Virus record (IMG/VR): IMGVR_UViG_2833692911_000002 | Span: 2,332 to 66,331 of that record | From: a virus | Taxonomy: Duplodnaviria > Caudoviricetes | Strand: one strand, 5' to 3' | Length of the DNA: 64,000 nucleotides | Part shown: positions 1,868-59,043 of the stretch, in pieces | Layout of the letters: each line of letters starts with the position of its first letter | Position numbering within the stretch: the first letter of the stretch is position 1 | Position numbers and translations under genes: made by a program | The notes under the pieces: generated by a model | What the model saw: only the letters and a program-made list of their open reading frames with translations | What the model was told of the DNA's origin: nothing | The model's database searches: none

Positions 1868-1901
1868 TTGTGTCTCCTCAAGTGGTGGTGGTTGGTGGTG
1901 G

Positions 1902-2153
1902 TTATGACGCTTGGCGGGCGTCCATCATCTCGCGTGTTTCGAACATCGGGTGAGTGGCGTTAGGAAAGTCCTGCTTCCAATACCGCTGGCCGATGGGGTC
2001 GTAGATTTGCTCCTTGCAGGCCTCGCAGTACCAAGAAAGGGCGCCGTGGTTATACCAATTGGCTGGGGCGCATTGGCAGAGTGCTCGGTTGCAGCTCCCG
2101 CCTTCATGCCCTTTGTCAGGCTTATTGGGGCCGTTATAGTCGCCATATGCCAC
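1902..2153 (-). CDS. Cys-rich hypothetical phage protein
   Basis: CNRALCQC...YCEAC; SD GAGGGG. Confidence 0.7.
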   Translation of the reverse strand: MAYGDYNGPNKPDKGHEGGSCNRALCQCAPANWYNHGALSWYCEACKEQIYDPIGQRYWKQDFPNATHPMFETREMMDARQAS

Positions 2154-2163
2154 GTTAATCCCC

Positions 2164-2301
2164 TCAATAAGCCCAGATCAGCACTGCGGTGATGAAGAGC
2201 GACAAAGCCAGAAAACTGGCTATGTCCTTCAACAGGTCGGCGTGCTCTTCGGTGATGATCTGCTGAACTGTGGTCGGCTCTTTGATGGCAGCCGCGCTCA
2301 T
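2164..2301 (-). CDS. Small membrane protein (45 aa, not in ORF track)
   Basis: MSAAAIKEPTTVQQIITEEHADLLKDIASFLALSLFITAVLIWAY; ATGA overlap with upstream gene. Confidence 0.6.
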   Translation of the reverse strand: MSAAAIKEPTTVQQIITEEHADLLKDIASFLALSLFITAVLIWAY

Positions 2302-2669
2302 TCGCCGGCCTCCAGCGCCTCGACGCGGCCGACGCGAACAAACACTTCGAAGGTGCCGCCGTGCTCTTTGTGCAGACGCGCGGCTTCGACCAGCGCTGAA
2401 TCGTAGGAGGGATGCTCAAAGGGCCACATGCAGGGACGAATGCGTCCGGTGCTGTCGCCACGGCGGAATACGAAGTGGCCACCGCTGACTTCCTCGCCGT
2501 TGCGCGGCTTCTTGGGGAAGCGGCGCATGTATTCGTATTTCGTTTTGGGCTTGCCGTGCTTCTTGGCCTTGTGGTCCGGGCGCTTCATCGGCTCGTCGGA
2601 CTGTGCAACAGCGCCGTGTGCGGCAGCTACAGCGATATCGTCAAACTCTTCGGGACGCGGTCTATACAT
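2298..2669 (-). CDS. Hypothetical phage protein
   Basis: CACCAC-GAGGAGA leader; basic protein. Confidence 0.75.
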   Translation of the reverse strand: MYRPRPEEFDDIAVAAAHGAVAQSDEPMKRPDHKAKKHGKPKTKYEYMRRFPKKPRNGEEVSGGHFVFRRGDSTGRIRPCMWPFEHPSYDSALVEAARLHKEHGGTFEVFVRVGRVEALEAGE

Positions 2670-2761
2670 GGTGTATCTCCTCTTGTGGTGGTGGCGTGGT
2701 GTGGTTGAGATCGAATTGGAGACCCGCCCGGAGACGGATGCCGAATGCGATCAGGCGGCTG

Positions 2762-2977
2762 TTAAGCAGATGCCCTCTTCATTCGTCCGCAGATATAACG
2801 TTCCGCGGCCTTCGAGGCCTTTTGCTCGGTCTCGTACATGGACTTCCCTGCATGGAAGAGGTGGCCCCGCTTGGTGACTTGAAACTTGTAGCCAGCCTTA
2901 CTCCAGGGAGTTTCCTCGTAACGCTCGACGCGAAACCCGAAGATTGCAGTTTCTTGATTGCAATGGTTGGCGTTCAT
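2762..2977 (-). CDS. Hypothetical protein, first gene of left early operon
   Basis: ATG at 2977 after CACCAC...AGGAGA, downstream of PL. Confidence 0.6.
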   Translation of the reverse strand: MNANHCNQETAIFGFRVERYEETPWSKAGYKFQVTKRGHLFHAGKSMYETEQKASKAAERYICGRMKRASA

Positions 2978-3047
2978 CGTCGTCATCTCCTGTTCTTGTG
3001 GTGGCAGCGAGATCGGCGGGGGCTTCTTCGTCGCTGCTGATGAGCCG

Positions 3048-3133
3048 ACTATGCGATAAACGAATAAGAGTGTCAAACAAAAGATTCGAAAAAAGGATAT
3101 TGTACGCTATTTGTTCTGTTCGATAATAGAATA
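3048..3133 (-). promoter_or_regulatory. Leftward early promoter PL with three 17-bp operators
   Basis: TTGACA(3076-3071)-17-CATAGT; pseudo-palindromes at 3050-3066, 3083-3099 and 3117-3133 (consensus about TWTTCGWWWATCGMATA), 33-34 bp apart. Confidence 0.7.
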
Positions 3134-3151
3134 TTCCTATTTGGCTCGCAC

Positions 3152-3177
3152 AAAAAAACCGCCTCAAAGGGCGGTTT
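3152..3177 (-). terminator. Intrinsic terminator after cI
   Basis: AAACCGCC/GGCGGTTT stem followed by a T-run on the minus strand. Confidence 0.7.
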
Positions 3178-56476: not shown

Positions 56477-56480
56477 GGGG

Positions 56481-56684
56481 CTATCCTCTTGTGGTGCTTA
56501 CTAGTCTTTCAAGCTTCCAGCCGCACGACGGCGGACTGGCGAGGAACTTTGCTGCACGTTGGTCGAGCTTCGCCGTGGCAGCGATTTTTGCGTGGGCGAC
56601 GGTGGGTGCTCGCACTGTTACGATCCAGCGCCCAGCCTGAAATCTGTACTGTTTCATCGTTTGTGTATGCATCTTGTGGGGCAT
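56481..56684 (-). CDS. Small basic protein, first gene of SOS-box operon
   Basis: Immediately downstream of LexA box promoter; exact start uncertain. Confidence 0.55.
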   Translation of the reverse strand: MPHKMHTQTMKQYRFQAGRWIVTVRAPTVAHAKIAATAKLDQRAAKFLASPPSCGWKLERLVSTTRG

Positions 56685-56687
56685 GAT

Positions 56688-56721
56688 GTTCTTATTATGT
56701 TCTCATGCGCGAAAGAGTCAA
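56688..56721 (-). promoter_or_regulatory. LexA (SOS) box over leftward promoter
   Basis: GTTC-N7-GTTC at 56688-56702 overlapping CATAAT -10; TTGACT -35 at 56721-56716. Confidence 0.75.
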
Positions 56722-56747
56722 TCTGGATTCTGTGGCAAGCGCAAATC

Positions 56748-56776
56748 TTGACAAATTTGTAAAAACAGTATAGCTT
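56748..56776 (+). promoter_or_regulatory. Early promoter with ACAAATTTGT operator (copy 3)
   Basis: TTGACA-17-TAGCTT; palindrome 56751-56760. Confidence 0.8.
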
Positions 56777-56852
56777 GATTATCGGCCTTACCAGCCTGCT
56801 TTACCAGAGCACCACCACATTGGCGCACGGTCGCCAGAAAGAGGGGATAATC

Positions 56853-57512
56853 ATGCTCAGACGATTCCTGCGGCGTATTGTGTCGCCACGCGCATTCCTC
56901 GTTGCCTTATTCCTCGTCATCGCCGCAACCTCCGCGGCCGCATATGCGCTCCTTCCTCCGCCAGCGTCTGCCGCGACCGAAGCGGCCACCGTTAAGATCC
57001 AACTCGAAAACGGCCACGGTTCTGGCGTTCATATTGGAGATGGATTTATCGTCACTGCTGCGCACGTCGTCGGCGATGCGAAGGAAGTTCAGCTGAAAGC
57101 GAAGGCGGGCGCTCTTCGCAAGGCCGATGTCCTTTGGGTCAACAAAGCCAATGACATTGCACTGCTGCGCACGTCGTCGGACGGCCTCGGCGTCGCAAAA
57201 CTGGCCTGCCACGCTGTGAAGACTGGCGATCCTATTGTCGCTTACGGCAATCCGTTGAAAATCGAATTCGTTGCTGCCTACGGGAAGATTGCCGGCGAAC
57301 CTCGCGAAACAGGTCCCTGGAAATCGGTCTACGTGACCGACATCACGACTGTGATGGGGCAATCGGGTGGCGGAACCTTTGCGGAGAACGGCGACTTGAT
57401 CGGCATTACCGTCGGCGTGATGGCCGCGCCGATTGGCTTCTCTGGTTCGCTGGTTGGCTATGGCTACGTCGTGCCTTCGACTGCGGTCTGTGAGTTGTTG
57501 GCGCGGAAGTAA
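56853..57512 (+). CDS. Exported trypsin-like (S1) serine protease
   Basis: Signal/TM; VTAAHVV, DIALL, GQSGG. Confidence 0.88.
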   Translation: MLRRFLRRIVSPRAFLVALFLVIAATSAAAYALLPPPASAATEAATVKIQLENGHGSGVHIGDGFIVTAAHVVGDAKEVQLKAKAGALRKADVLWVNKANDIALLRTSSDGLGVAKLACHAVKTGDPIVAYGNPLKIEFVAAYGKIAGEPRETGPWKSVYVTDITTVMGQSGGGTFAENGDLIGITVGVMAAPIGFSGSLVGYGYVVPSTAVCELLARK

Positions 57513-57565
57513 AATCAATCAGGCCGCCCACCAAGCGGCCTCAACCACCACATCGAGGAGACTGC

Positions 57566-58819
57566 ATGCCTCTACCCATCGAAGAACTACGCCGAAGAGC
57601 CGACGCCTACAAAGAGCACGGCACGTTGAAGAAAGCTGCTGCTGCCCTTGGGATCGGCAAGTCCGCGCTGCACGACAGCATCAAACGCGCCGCTGAGGCT
57701 GGCCTCCTCGGCACGGAGCCTGTTTTGCCCGGCTTCCGCATCAGCAAGATCAGCAACACACCAAGTGGCACGTTCATCCAGCAGACGCAGGAGCGCGGCG
57801 AGAAGTTTGCCGTACCCAATGGCCATGTTGTCAAAGGCGTGTCGGCGCTCGTCGATGGTGAAGGCCGTGTTATCCAGCAGTGGCAGAAGACGGCAGTCGG
57901 TGCAGAGGGCCAAATAGCGGCTTTCCAGGCGATGGTCGACGGCCTGAAGGAAGACCTGCCGCGGGTTACGATCATGCCAGCGCCGGCGCATGTCGAGGAA
58001 GACCTTCTGAACCAGTTCGTTGTCACCGACAGCCATTTCGGTATGCTGGCCCATCGCGAAGAAACAGGCGCCGACTATGACCTGAGGCTGGCCGAGCAAT
58101 TGCTGCTGGATTGGTTTGCCGCCGCTGTGGCGGGTGCTCCGCAAGCGCACACAGCGGTTTTAGCGCAGCTCGGCGACCTGTTGCACCATGACGCCCTCGA
58201 AAGCGTGACGCCAGCGCACAAGCACGTCCTCGATGCCGATTCTCGCCTTCATAAAGTTGTTCGCGTCGTCATTCGCACACTGCGGCGTGTCGTCGACATG
58301 CTGCTTCAGAAGCACAAGCATGTCCATGTCGTCATGGCGTCGGGAAACCACGACCCAGCCTCATCGGTATGGGTGCGCGAACTGCTGGCGACGATTTATG
58401 AGAACGAGCCGCGCGTGACCGTCGATACCAGCCCGATGCTCTACTACGCATACAAGTGGGGAGACACGGCGCTGTTCTATCATCACGGTCATAAGCGCGG
58501 CGTGGCCCAGGTCGACGCAACGCTCGCAGGCATGTTCCGTGAGATGTTCGGTCAGTCGAAATATGCCTTCGCGCATGTCGGCCACCTGCACAGCGACGAG
58601 GGCCGCAAGTCGGCCCTGATGTATGTCGAGCGCCACGAAACGCTTGCAGCGCCTGACGCCTATGCTGCCGGTGGTGGCTGGCTGTCCGGGCGATCAGCCA
58701 AGGTCATCACATATTCGCGCCGCTACGGCGAGGTGGCGCGCTCCACGCTGCGTCCGGAGATGGTTGCGGGTCGGTATTCGGCTGCGAATGACAATGAGCC
58801 GGTGAGGGCGGTGGCGTGA
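57566..58819 (+). CDS. HTH plus calcineurin-like phosphoesterase
   Basis: KAAAALGIGKSAL; DSHFG, LGDLLH, GNHD, HHGH, GHLH. Confidence 0.85.
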   Translation: MPLPIEELRRRADAYKEHGTLKKAAAALGIGKSALHDSIKRAAEAGLLGTEPVLPGFRISKISNTPSGTFIQQTQERGEKFAVPNGHVVKGVSALVDGEGRVIQQWQKTAVGAEGQIAAFQAMVDGLKEDLPRVTIMPAPAHVEEDLLNQFVVTDSHFGMLAHREETGADYDLRLAEQLLLDWFAAAVAGAPQAHTAVLAQLGDLLHHDALESVTPAHKHVLDADSRLHKVVRVVIRTLRRVVDMLLQKHKHVHVVMASGNHDPASSVWVRELLATIYENEPRVTVDTSPMLYYAYKWGDTALFYHHGHKRGVAQVDATLAGMFREMFGQSKYAFAHVGHLHSDEGRKSALMYVERHETLAAPDAYAAGGGWLSGRSAKVITYSRRYGEVARSTLRPEMVAGRYSAANDNEPVRAVA

Positions 58820-59043
58820 GCGATTACGCTATTGAGTTGGTAGCAATCGAACTACACAAGCAGTCGCAGTCTGTGGAGCTAGGGCGCAGAAAAATAAAGT
58901 GGCTTCAACTTTCTGCCTGTCAAAGACAATGGTGGAGAGATGCGGCTAGACGCGTCGCCTCGGAGCAGTAGGCAGTTCAGGAATAACCATGACGCCGCTG
59001 GCGACCAACCGGCGGCAAACACCACTACAAGAGGAGATTGAAC

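Follow-up and report, generated by a model that had tools for sequence, protein, structure and literature searches.

Start-associated repeats and their possible readers

Cluster K mycobacteriophages carry start-associated sequences (SAS/ESAS), a repeat with the 13-bp consensus GGGATAGGAGCCC that is present in 11-19 copies per genome, and the available portions of the paper that described it left open whether its reader is 'either RNA or protein' (Pope et al., 2011, PMC3203893); the reader is still undefined in the accessible part of a 2025 paper (PMC12699233). Our analysis concerns a repeat of a similar kind in a 64,000-nucleotide stretch of phage DNA (the window; bases 2332-66331 of one 66,331-bp virus record, IMGVR_UViG_2833692911_000002). 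In the window, a shared leader of the form CACCAC-N-GAGGAGAC, in which a C/A-rich tract is followed by an extended Shine-Dalgarno (SD) sequence, precedes the start codons of a set of genes, and a candidate small RNA (sRNA) encoded once, on the minus strand at 4218-4352, holds the complement of this leader in its loops. We think it likely, from comparison of the two elements across related phages, that the leader is the target of this phage-encoded, trans-acting 'anti-leader RNA', which would repress translation of the regulon that the leader defines.

On the features given in the available portions of Pope et al., the SAS and the leader described here are alike in several respects. Both are asymmetric, SD-containing repeats a few nucleotides before the start (3-7 nt for the SAS), nearly always in one orientation (15/16 sites in gene sense here) and with a preference for ATG; both precede genes that follow long gaps and lie in the non-structural part of the genome, a rule that is partly broken by relatives of the window phage such as Sinorhizobium phage 16-3; and both are absent from the host genome and have conserved positions that are unable to pair with 16S rRNA. 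An inverted repeat lies just upstream of about half of the SAS sites and of 8 of the 17 leader genes here. The leader differs from the SAS in its word, in host phylum and in phage lineage, and is thus an analogue and not a member of that family; unlike for the SAS, a specific, complementary and co-varying candidate RNA is identified here.

Two bacterial and phage RNAs come close to the proposed reader. GcvB, in the partial summary of Sharma et al. (2007) in PMC4474525, uses a G/U-rich seed against C/A-rich enhancer elements at ribosome-binding sites (RBSs) and represses many mRNAs. The phage sRNA resembles it in setting a G/U-rich unpaired seed against C/A-rich sites at or upstream of many RBSs, whereas GcvB is a host RNA that acts on host amino-acid transport genes and has no Rfam kinship with the phage sRNA. 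Beyond what is summarised for GcvB, the phage sRNA has an explicit anti-SD element and near-identical leaders in its predicted targets, and both partners are phage-borne. The c4 RNA of phages P1 and P7 blocks an RBS with sequences in its loops and determines heteroimmunity (Citron and Schuster, 1990, as covered in the available part of a review, PMC12197685). The likeness here extends to a phage RNA with the complement in its loops, to the RBS region as its target (by complementarity only in the present case), to a place in the immunity region and to RNA/target differences between relatives. On the same account, c4 acts on the single operon of the antirepressor ant, whereas the phage sRNA has some 13-17 dispersed predicted targets among replication, recombination and regulatory genes, with no antirepressor identified among them.

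The c4 RNA is cut out of a transcript that also contains its target; the phage sRNA, unlike c4, appears as a separate gene with promoter-like and terminator-like signals of its own. Alphaproteobacterial anti-SD sRNAs with C/U-rich loops (AbcR1/2, alpha-r15; the 'cuckoo' alpha-r14) expose CUCC-type motifs that pair with the SD regions of several mRNAs. The phage sRNA is neither alpha-r14 nor alpha-r15, since an Rfam scan of 4050-4500 at E <=10 returned six chance-level matches, none of them to these families or to GcvB; it adds G/U-rich loops, and its predicted targets are the phage's own genes. In phage T4, the translational repressor RegA and the endoribonuclease RegB act on the ribosome-binding regions of many early mRNAs and bring about their joint shut-off; these readers are proteins, whereas the reader proposed here is an RNA. 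T4-type phages also contain promoter/stem-loop cassettes as module-boundary repeats. To our knowledge, each of the phage regulatory RNAs described so far (OOP, sar, c4, P4 CI) has only one or two target sites. A literature search, which did not reach subscription papers on 16-3, found no published description of the leader or of the RNA; the words sRNA, non-coding, Shine, ribosome, intergenic and promoter are all absent from the AP-16-3 genome paper, and the phrase 'early genes' is absent from the available part of the 2025 review of phage sRNAs (PMC12197685). Regulation by a base-pairing sRNA is of a known kind; what would be unusual here is a phage-private regulon in which leader and sRNA co-evolve.

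The leader and the candidate RNA that complements it

DNA patches of the window are 67-74% identical to the temperate Sinorhizobium phage 16-3, Rhizobium phage RHph_TM3_3_14B (TM3) and their relatives, and a 99%-identical prophage is present in Agrobacterium pusense LMG 25623 (locus L005), because of which the phage host is probably an Agrobacterium. Genes were mapped with a crude codon-usage gene caller, which predicted 105 of them in the window. An earlier note on this DNA, made from its letters alone, had listed 18 places where CACCAC lies near an SD in the sense of the gene, and the motif is indeed present on the strand given at all 18. At 16 of them a GAGGAGA-like SD follows 0-7 nt 3' of CACCAC, and ATG a further 4-7 nt on. 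The two weaker sites are at 56491 (minus strand), with GAGGAT and a GTG start, and at 56813 (plus strand), 34 nt 5' of a weak SD and separated from it by the hairpin that the note had reported.

CACCAC alone is found 63 times in the window, compared to 26.7 +/- 5.1 times in 100 shuffles (largest count 43), and the composite CACCAC-N0-8-GGAGA gives 17 matches at 16 distinct sites against 0.32 expected from shuffles (largest count 2); 15 of these 16 sites lie directly 5' of a gene start and in the same sense as the gene. The sixteenth, CACCAC-N-GGGGAGA at 29758-29774 (plus strand), is the only one away from a gene start; it falls within the portal gene (29678-30907) and is probably a chance match, possibly an internal start. 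The octamer GAGGAGAC occurs 10 times (1.9 expected), nine times as the SD of a gene start and once, at 4288-4295, with no start codon after it, as the template of the second seed of the sRNA described below. The proposal that CACCAC marks the starts of translationally coupled blocks also holds, in that the motif lies no more than 29 nt from the start of 15 of the 49 genes with an upstream gap of at least 15 nt, compared to 3 of the 56 that abut or overlap the preceding gene. It is also present before operon-internal genes, 23-60 nt past the preceding stop codon.

Pooling 119 leader instances from the window, 16-3, TM3 and 17 prophage loci yields a shared string longer than the CACCAC-N-GAGGAGA first noticed: a G-free C/A tract, in which G is present in 0-5 of the 119 instances at each position from -5 to -11, then GAGGAGAC (G-A-GGAG-A-C), 5-7 nt and ATG. 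The start codon is ATG in 115/119 instances and the distance from GGAG to the start is 5-7 nt in 103/119. The inverted repeat already mentioned is a GC-rich hairpin whose loop is of the CCACCAA or CGACCAA type, and it is found just 5' of only 2 of the 88 other genes; in isolated folds of eight leaders this hairpin forms, CACCAC is unpaired in 8/8 and the SD is free or weakly paired. The 3' end of the host 16S rRNA, GGAUCACCUCCUUUCU, pairs with GAGGAG. Pairing of CACCAC with this rRNA was considered and rejected, and the leader is not simply the host's best RBS, because neither CACCAC nor the conserved AC after GGAG is complementary to GGAUCACCUCCUUUCU. The idea of a tRNA-like or RNase P substrate ('hairpin + NCCA') was also discarded, as the CCA tract is not directly 3' of the stem.

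The candidate sRNA, of about 125-135 nt, has a single gene in the immunity region. At its 5' side are hairpin 1 (UGUCCGCU-GUGGU-GGCGGAUA) and then a middle domain that contains GUCUCCUC; the conserved linker UAGUACGG leads on to a long 3' hairpin, after which come terminator-like U-runs at 4231-4227 and 4224-4218. Its predicted fold (minimum free energy -54 kcal/mol, z -1.83) leaves three seeds unpaired. Seed 1, UGUGGUG (4338-4344), is the loop of hairpin 1 and the complement of leader CACCACA. Seed 2, GUCUCCUC (4288-4295), of which UCCUCG is unpaired, lies in an internal loop and is the complement of the extended SD GAGGAGAC. Seed 3, GGUGGUG (4248-4254), is the apical loop of the 3' hairpin (CGG-GUGGUG-CCG) and the complement of CACCACC and of the CCACC of the leader hairpin loops. 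A putative promoter at 4358-4386 (minus strand) comprises a -35 box TTGACA (4386-4381), a 17-nt spacer with the palindrome ACAAATTTGT (4365-4374) and a -10-like TAGGAG (4363-4358); it was called because of the conserved TTGAC box, at a fixed distance from the sRNA in 16/17 copies, and the comparison with relatives, not by promoter scanning. In 16-3 and TM3 the sRNA promoter reads TTGACAAATTTG, of the same family as the repeated promoters of the targets, a likeness that suggests that the sRNA may be made together with its targets. The palindrome, ACAA-AT-TTGT, shares its half-sites with the mapped C operators of 16-3 (ACAA-N4/N6-TTGT) but has a spacer of 2 bp instead of 4 or 6, and therefore allows no conclusion on timing. 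Rfam at its gathering thresholds, over the whole window, returned only three tRNAs and an ar35 match (22029-22142), and none over the sRNA.

The minus strand appears to be the RNA strand because of the fixed position of TTGAC, because it is more stable than its complement in 17/17 copies (mean -8.75 kcal/mol), and because its G.U pairs, among them the invariant U.G that closes hairpin 1, would read A.C on the opposite strand. Running towards the sRNA from the other side is a 40-aa open reading frame (ORF; 4137-4259, plus strand) whose SD is GGGGAGA. It points away from the CI-type repressor, occupies the position of p069 in 16-3 and overlaps the 3' hairpin of the sRNA; transcriptional interference or cis-antisense effects are possible in the window phage, and the overlap is not kept in 16-3 or in the Brucellaceae-type prophages. 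In the latter (L012, L014, L016, L042 and others) the first rightward early gene has its leader back-to-back with the sRNA promoter; a p070-like gene separates the two in the window, 16-3 and TM3 and is absent from the Brucellaceae-type prophages.

Matches by blastn were confined to the closest prophages, and the sRNA was placed by synteny and motif order in 16-3, TM3 and nine other loci. One architecture is common to the twelve aligned copies, with CGGGUGGUGCCG invariant, apical CGGGTGGTGCCG invariant in 12/12, and the GUGGU loop of hairpin 1 invariant in nine copies. The middle-domain stem proposed by RNAalifold has double-sided changes in 9/13 pairs, and the sequence of the outer helix of the 3' hairpin differs by lineage. 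MAFFT misplaced hairpin 1 and the outer 3' helix in the whole-sRNA alignment, and a 15-sequence hairpin alignment put the length difference at its end; the pairs of hairpin 1 were therefore counted in two subgroups, excluding L013 and L099, whose loop geometry differs. In nine copies hairpin 1 is 100% paired with compensatory changes in 5/6 pairs and a covariation score of 0.827 vs 0.239, reached by 0/500 shuffles, and in the six others it is again 100% paired, with compensatory changes in 3/6 pairs and a score of 0.750 vs 0.374, reached by 2/500 shuffles; slid registers all collapse. A covariance model detects a single copy in each phage, invariably on the other strand from the helicase. It gave 16 matches in the first set, four of them in loci outside the training set, and a match in 40 of 79 loci from helicase relatives. 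Among viral contigs retrieved with an apex 14-mer pattern it gave at least 7 copies (80 loci examined among the matches listed), and among 79 loci retrieved with the pattern TACG-N10-35-GGGTGGTGCC it gave 1 true copy.

When 7-mer complements are profiled along each sRNA against the translation-initiation regions (TIRs) of its own phage, every phage shows peaks at loop 1, at the internal loop and at the apex, and counts close to zero elsewhere; at loop 1 (UGUGGUG) up to 9 own TIRs match. In the window, 13 of the 105 gene starts combine a complement of 7 nt or more to seed 2 with one of 6 nt or more to either seed 1 or seed 3, and runs of 9-11 nt are found at genes 7408, 11570, 16179, 24046 and 57566. 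The predicted targets include the VG64-family protein, the AAA_24 ATPase, the DUF669 protein, the beta-clamp homologue, the sigma-70-family factor, the phosphoesterase and the MT-A70 methylase, among others, while the CI-type repressor falls outside the set. Complements to the apex or loop 1 lie near the SD in 36-40% of B-type leaders compared to 0-1% of other starts, and in 85% compared to 16% for the R type (the types are defined below). CACCAC is one of two or three pairing blocks. The reversed sRNA is unusable as a control, as GUGGUG and CUCCUC read the same backwards, and shuffles and a cross-phage matrix were used; duplexes of the whole RNA are implausibly large and looped, and the analysis was restricted to the seeds instead.

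The leader is a property of the phages and not of their hosts. The pattern CACCAC-N0-6-GAGGAGA has 12 matches in the 5.3-Mb A. pusense genome, and the check on host genes suggested in the earlier note found all 12 inside the prophage; in three other hosts 12/14, 10/12 and 11/13 matches are in the prophage, and a reversed-pattern control gave 0-1. Both 16-3 and TM3 have the same leader at about 15-17 gene starts each. Related prophages in Ochrobactrum, Brucella pseudogrignonensis and Falsochrobactrum have CACCAC-N-GAGGAGAC only 0-1 times per 20 kb and have in its place a hairpin whose loop is CACCAA or CACCAG, followed by a C/A tract and AACACGAGGAG; the variant word ACACGAGGAG is again concentrated in the prophage in four hosts (11/11, 10/12, 12/13 and 12/15 matches).

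The RNA changes with the leader. In phages of Rhizobiaceae (R type) the seed GUCUCCUC goes with the leader GAGGAGAC, in phages of the Ochrobactrum/Brucella type (B type) the seed CUCCUCGUGU goes with ACACGAGGAG, and in one Paenochrobactrum prophage (L015) the seed UAUCUCCUC goes with GAGGAGAUA. Six phages with GUCUCC in the RNA have GGAGAC in 5-20 TIRs and ACGAGGAG in 0-1, and four phages with CUCCUCGUGU have GGAGAC in none and ACGAGGAG in 3-8. Two predictions made before the RNA was inspected held: the CACGAGGAG leaders of L011 are matched by CUCCUCGUG in its RNA, and the GAGGAGAUA leaders and CACCACAAC tracts of L015 by UAUCUCCUC and an apex GUUGUGGUG. Of 34 distinct loci with the sRNA, 23 have in their own RNA, at nt 50-60, the complement of their commonest TIR 8-mer, a word that was picked without regard to the RNA (15/15 for CACGAGGA, 7/8 for GAGGAGAC and 1/1 for AGGAGATA, the complement of the last being present in 0/33 other RNAs), with word types that partition exclusively; the 11 loci missed are one flanking base off or have the CACCAC tract as their top word. 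The matrix of cognate and non-cognate combinations shows a block structure. No TIR word is shared, with a maximum count of 3, in the six relatives without an sRNA match (L017, L020/L322, L323, L332, L333, L336). Three others (L010/L287, L265, L266) have leaders but no sRNA match, and these loci end before the sRNA site; L266 was rejected as a counter-example, since it begins at the equivalent of window position 4849, short of that site. In L018 (= L286) a shorter, rearranged relative of the sRNA lies at about 2503-2625 (minus strand). It has the loop UGUGGUG, and a terminator comes after its GAGUGGUGUC apex; as it is directly antisense to the SD of a leader gene next to it, it may represent the system in a cis-antisense form. 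Taken together, a structured single-copy RNA, complementary unpaired seeds and co-variation give in silico support to the suggestion in the earlier note of an RNA-level regulon read by an antisense RNA from 4218-4351.

The distribution of the leader over gene classes is less simple than first proposed. The absence of CACCAC from before head, tail and lysis genes, and its restriction to early genes ('early' being judged from gene content and position), hold in the window, where virion genes are without the leader and the major capsid gene (32048) has only a distant CACCAC, 23 nt before its plain AAGGAG SD. Neither statement extends to the relatives, and 'early only' is not a general rule, because CACCAC-N-TGGAGAC precedes the major head gene of 16-3 and the major capsid and major tail genes of TM3.

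Leaders, promoters and neighbouring features in the window

The gene layout of the window agrees with that of 16-3. Leftward genes extend up to about position 3000, and three of them have the leader on the minus strand. Gene 1655-1867 (70 aa, no Pfam match) has an (ACC)n/CACCAC tract and then GAGGAGAC at 1868-1900, with 8 nt complementary to seed 2 and 7 nt to seeds 1 and 3; the leader of gene 2298-2669 (123 aa), at 2670-2701, has 7 nt complementary to seed 2 and 9 nt to seed 1; and that of gene 2762-2977 (71 aa), at 2978-3003, is a weaker form with AGGAGA, with 6 nt complementary to seed 2 and 9 nt to seed 1. The CI-type repressor, with HTH_3 and Peptidase_S24 domains, is encoded at 3199-3765 on the same strand.

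A rightward block with replication and recombination genes runs from 5118 to about 25500 on the plus strand. The repeated sigma-70-type promoter TTGACAAATTTGTAAAA-N-TAGTTT at 5034-5062 stands 5' of its first leader gene, with further plus-strand copies at 14220-14248 and 56748-56776; in the general form TTGACAAATTTGTAAAA-N-TAGnTT it is found in front of leader genes and has 3 copies in the window, 8 in 16-3 and 6 in TM3, and it contains the 10-bp palindrome that is shared with the putative sRNA promoter. The leader of gene 5118-5525 (Phage_VG64 family) spans 5072-5117, with a hairpin at 5072-5096, CACCACCC and GAGGAGA, and is followed by that of gene 5565-5915 (weak HTH match) at 5542-5564. 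Gene 7408-7608 (66 aa) has at 7357-7407 a hairpin (7357-7379, loop CGACCAA), CACCACA and GAGGAGACCUU, with 11 contiguous nt complementary to seed 2. The leaders of gene 7925-8698 (AAA_24, Sak4-like ATPase; SD GAGGAGG) and gene 8881-9459 (DUF669) are at 7905-7924 and 8862-8880. That of gene 9523-10572, a homologue of the DNA polymerase III beta-clamp, is at 9471-9522 and has a hairpin (9471-9495), CCACCACA and GAGGAGAC.

Further along the block, the sigma-70 family factor gene (11570-12106) has at 11529-11569 a small hairpin with loop CCACCAA, CACCACA and GAGGAGACC. The leader of the metallophosphoesterase gene (14296-14802), at 14257-14295, lies directly 3' of the promoter at 14220 and consists of a hairpin (14257-14274, loop CACCAA), CACCACA and GAGGAGA. 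The MT-A70 methyltransferase gene (16179-16745) has at 16121-16178 a hairpin (16121-16139, loop CCACCAA), CACCACAG and CCGAGGAGAC, with 10 nt complementary to seed 2. Two CACCAC, one of them in a hairpin loop, precede CGAGGAGACC in the leader of gene 24046-24519 (157 aa) at 24008-24045, with 10 nt complementary to seed 2 and 9 nt to seed 1, and the last leader of the block, at 24535-24553, belongs to gene 24554-25498 (314 aa; SD GGGGAGAC). Three tRNA genes (Met-CAT, Thr-TGT, Pro-TGG; 25634-26089, plus strand) separate this early block from the packaging genes, and virion genes occupy about 26100 to 48100.

A weak leader at 56477-56496 (minus strand) precedes gene 56276-56476, and a further rightward block begins at 56853. 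Its first gene (56853-57512, trypsin-like peptidase) has an atypical 5' untranslated region at 56810-56852, downstream of the promoter at 56748, in which CACCACCAC is the element 34 nt 5' of the weak SD. Gene 57566-58819 (417 aa) has at 57521-57565 a hairpin (57521-57541, loop CCACCAA), CCACCACA and CGAGGAGAC, and gene 59044-59514 (156 aa) has at 58994-59043 a hairpin (58994-59016, loop CGACCAA), CACCAC and GAGGAGA, both on the plus strand.

Three other features of the early region were noted. A 384-aa protein (6193-7347, plus strand) has a sub-threshold match to the L7/L12 C-terminal domain (E 9.5e-5, 23.1 bits vs a cut-off of 25.9), and the matching region of the relative RHph_X2_25 is annotated as 'ribosomal L7/L12 domain-containing protein'; a link of this protein to translation is possible. 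A 330-aa ORF with NUMOD3 and AP2 domains, of homing-endonuclease-like type, sits inside the early operon at 16736-17728 (plus strand); its codon-usage score was too low for it to be picked by the gene caller, and because of this low score it is suggested to be a recent mobile insertion. The match to ar35, an alphaproteobacterial sRNA family in Rfam, at 22029-22142 (plus strand; 45.9 bits vs a gathering score of 45) is flanked by the primase block and a leftward 416-aa gene and ends with a GGCC-UUUUUU terminator-like tail; its 3' part is kept in L324 (81% over 69 nt), and it would be a second candidate small RNA of this phage.

How the leader may be read and what it would mean

We propose that the G/U-rich loops of the sRNA may make the first contact, either with the single-stranded C/A tract or with the CCACCAA loop of the leader hairpin, from which pairing would spread over the SD and occlude the ribosome-binding site. 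The whole leader-defined set, some 13-17 genes for replication, recombination, the sigma factor, the methylase and other functions, would be repressed jointly, while leaderless genes, including most virion genes and the CI-type repressor, would escape. Without the sRNA, the C/A tract would probably be an unstructured standby or enhancer site. Delayed negative feedback, as an early shut-off or dampening, is favoured because the sRNA promoter in 16-3 and TM3 belongs to the TTGACAAATTTG family of the target promoters; an immunity role in lysogens is equally open.

Several observations weigh against repression by this sRNA. The z score of its fold is modest, with 8/200 shuffles folding as well. 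A scan of 3700-5200 for E. coli-type consensus promoters found no promoter-like site, and the proposed -10 (TAGGAG) is poor; the hairpin and U-run that resemble a terminator are present in the window and several copies, and some copies are without a clear U-tract. The leader before capsid and tail genes in relatives is a poor fit with pure early shut-off. Duplex energies of the whole RNA separate CACCAC starts from others only weakly (means of -37.9 and -33.7 kcal/mol, one-sided p = 0.023), shuffled sRNAs equal the observed count of 8-mer matches in some phages (16 observed and a shuffle maximum of 16 in 16-3), and every anti-SD word finds some matches among SD-bearing starts. The order of the seeds makes simple antiparallel pairing feasible for seeds 2 and 3, but not for seeds 1 and 2 on one leader. 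The 16-3 sRNA reads GUCUCCUG, one mismatch from the commonest leader word of that phage, and L018/L286 has leaders, yet its sRNA match is marginal and rearranged (13.5 bits). Finally, the co-variation amounts to about three independent states (R type, B type and L015, with L013 partial), many loci being close kin or mosaics; L324 and L315 were rejected as independent mosaics, their early regions being 85-95% identical to the window.

The leader could also act by itself, as an autonomous translation element: behind a stabilising 5' hairpin, the G/U-free C/A tract would prevent a strong SD from folding and serve as a standby site or enhancer, the leader being no more than the best ribosome-binding cassette of this phage lineage and the sRNA irrelevant to it. 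This would agree with the near absence of G from the tract, with CACCAC being unpaired in all the leader folds, with the presence of the leader before very highly expressed genes in relatives (major capsid in 16-3 and TM3, major tail in TM3), and with the enhancement of translation by C/A-rich elements in GcvB targets, as given in the available part of PMC4474525. However, the hosts make no use of the leader (in A. pusense 0/12 matches fall in non-prophage DNA, and the variant word gives a similar picture), the conserved AC and the exact words are unable to pair with 16S rRNA, and composition fails to explain why the words of a clade match that clade's own sRNA. Such autonomous action is compatible with the sRNA model and fails only as the sole explanation, in which form we judge it unlikely. 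A phage or host RNA-binding protein, a repressor or nuclease like T4 RegA or RegB with the sRNA unrelated or a competitor, would explain the strict orientation and the fixed place next to the SD; a dimeric binder would be in keeping with the two 'CCA' elements, of which one is single-stranded and the other lies in the hairpin loop, and what is available of Pope et al. (PMC3203893) leaves 'RNA or protein' open for the SAS. The earlier note had also allowed for such a protein, but no Pfam RNA-binding or RegA/RegB domain was found in the 40 early-region proteins scanned (of 105 predicted genes; novel folds would escape Pfam), and a protein would give no reason for an adjacent non-coding RNA with the exact complement of each clade's leader in unpaired loops. 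We consider a protein reader improbable.

Leaders that are mainly recombination linkers, module-boundary repeats spread because they allow homologous gene shuffling, would account for the same leader before non-homologous genes in different phages, for the cross-matching of repeated promoter copies between sites, and for a gene junction inside the leader of L324. In that window-like viral contig (5532-5999) the VG64-family gene has moved to a place after the DUF669 gene, joining window positions 9457-9517 to 5106-5520, and because this junction falls within the shared leader, leaders appear to act also as recombination joints for gene shuffling. Recombination is, however, an expected by-product of any repeat, and a DNA-level linker needs no fixed distance to the start, single orientation, ATG (115/119) or G-free make-up, nor a match to the loops of an RNA; as the main function of the leader it has little probability in our view. 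It is very improbable that 4218-4352 is instead transcribed on the plus strand, in a rightward repressor-proximal transcript, as a decoy or sponge with CACCAC, GAGGAGAC and CACCACA. It is true that these leader-like words occur on the plus strand with no start codon after them, that co-variation with the leaders would be seen for a sponge as much as for an antisense RNA, and that the small ORF at 4137-4259 extends into the region; against this stand the TTGAC box and the U-tracts on the minus strand, the better folding of that strand in every copy, the G.U pairs that would become A.C, among them the closing pair of hairpin 1, and a motif spacing of 37 and 41 nt, unlike that of the leader. We give as little credence to a motif that acts in DNA, as a promoter for a phage sigma-70-family factor or as an operator, and that lies near gene starts by coincidence. 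The phage does encode such a factor (11570-12106), 16-3 has several annotated sigma factors, and an ACCAA-type word is often found 5' of CACCAC; but the spacing between these words varies from 4 to 13 nt, a start site 3' of CACCAC would fall in or past the SD, the repeated promoter of the phage is separate and further upstream, and the motif also precedes operon-internal genes 23-60 nt past the prior stop.

If the leader is indeed read by the phage sRNA, one phage RNA would appear to address some 15 of its own genes through a common, phage-private leader, which would be a new scale of phage RNA control. It would name a concrete candidate for the reader of start-associated sequences, which has been an open question in Cluster K since 2011, and would offer synthetic biology orthogonal leader/sRNA pairs for Rhizobiales. 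A more speculative extension, which we hold to be possible but doubtful, is that the anti-leader RNA is an RNA-based specificity, or immunity, determinant for a family of temperate alphaproteobacterial phages, in which seed/leader pairs define 'translational immunity groups'. If this were true, the RNA of a resident prophage would silence some 15-20 genes of an incoming phage with the same leader dialect, escape would take a joint change of the RNA and of all leaders, and the shared leaders would double as gene-shuffling joints; the same logic could explain the Cluster K sequences, and 'one sRNA plus one shared leader' could be a general strategy of phage expression. For the classical 16-3 phage group of Sinorhizobium meliloti, regulation of the leader by this sRNA would add a post-transcriptional layer to the lysis/lysogeny programme.

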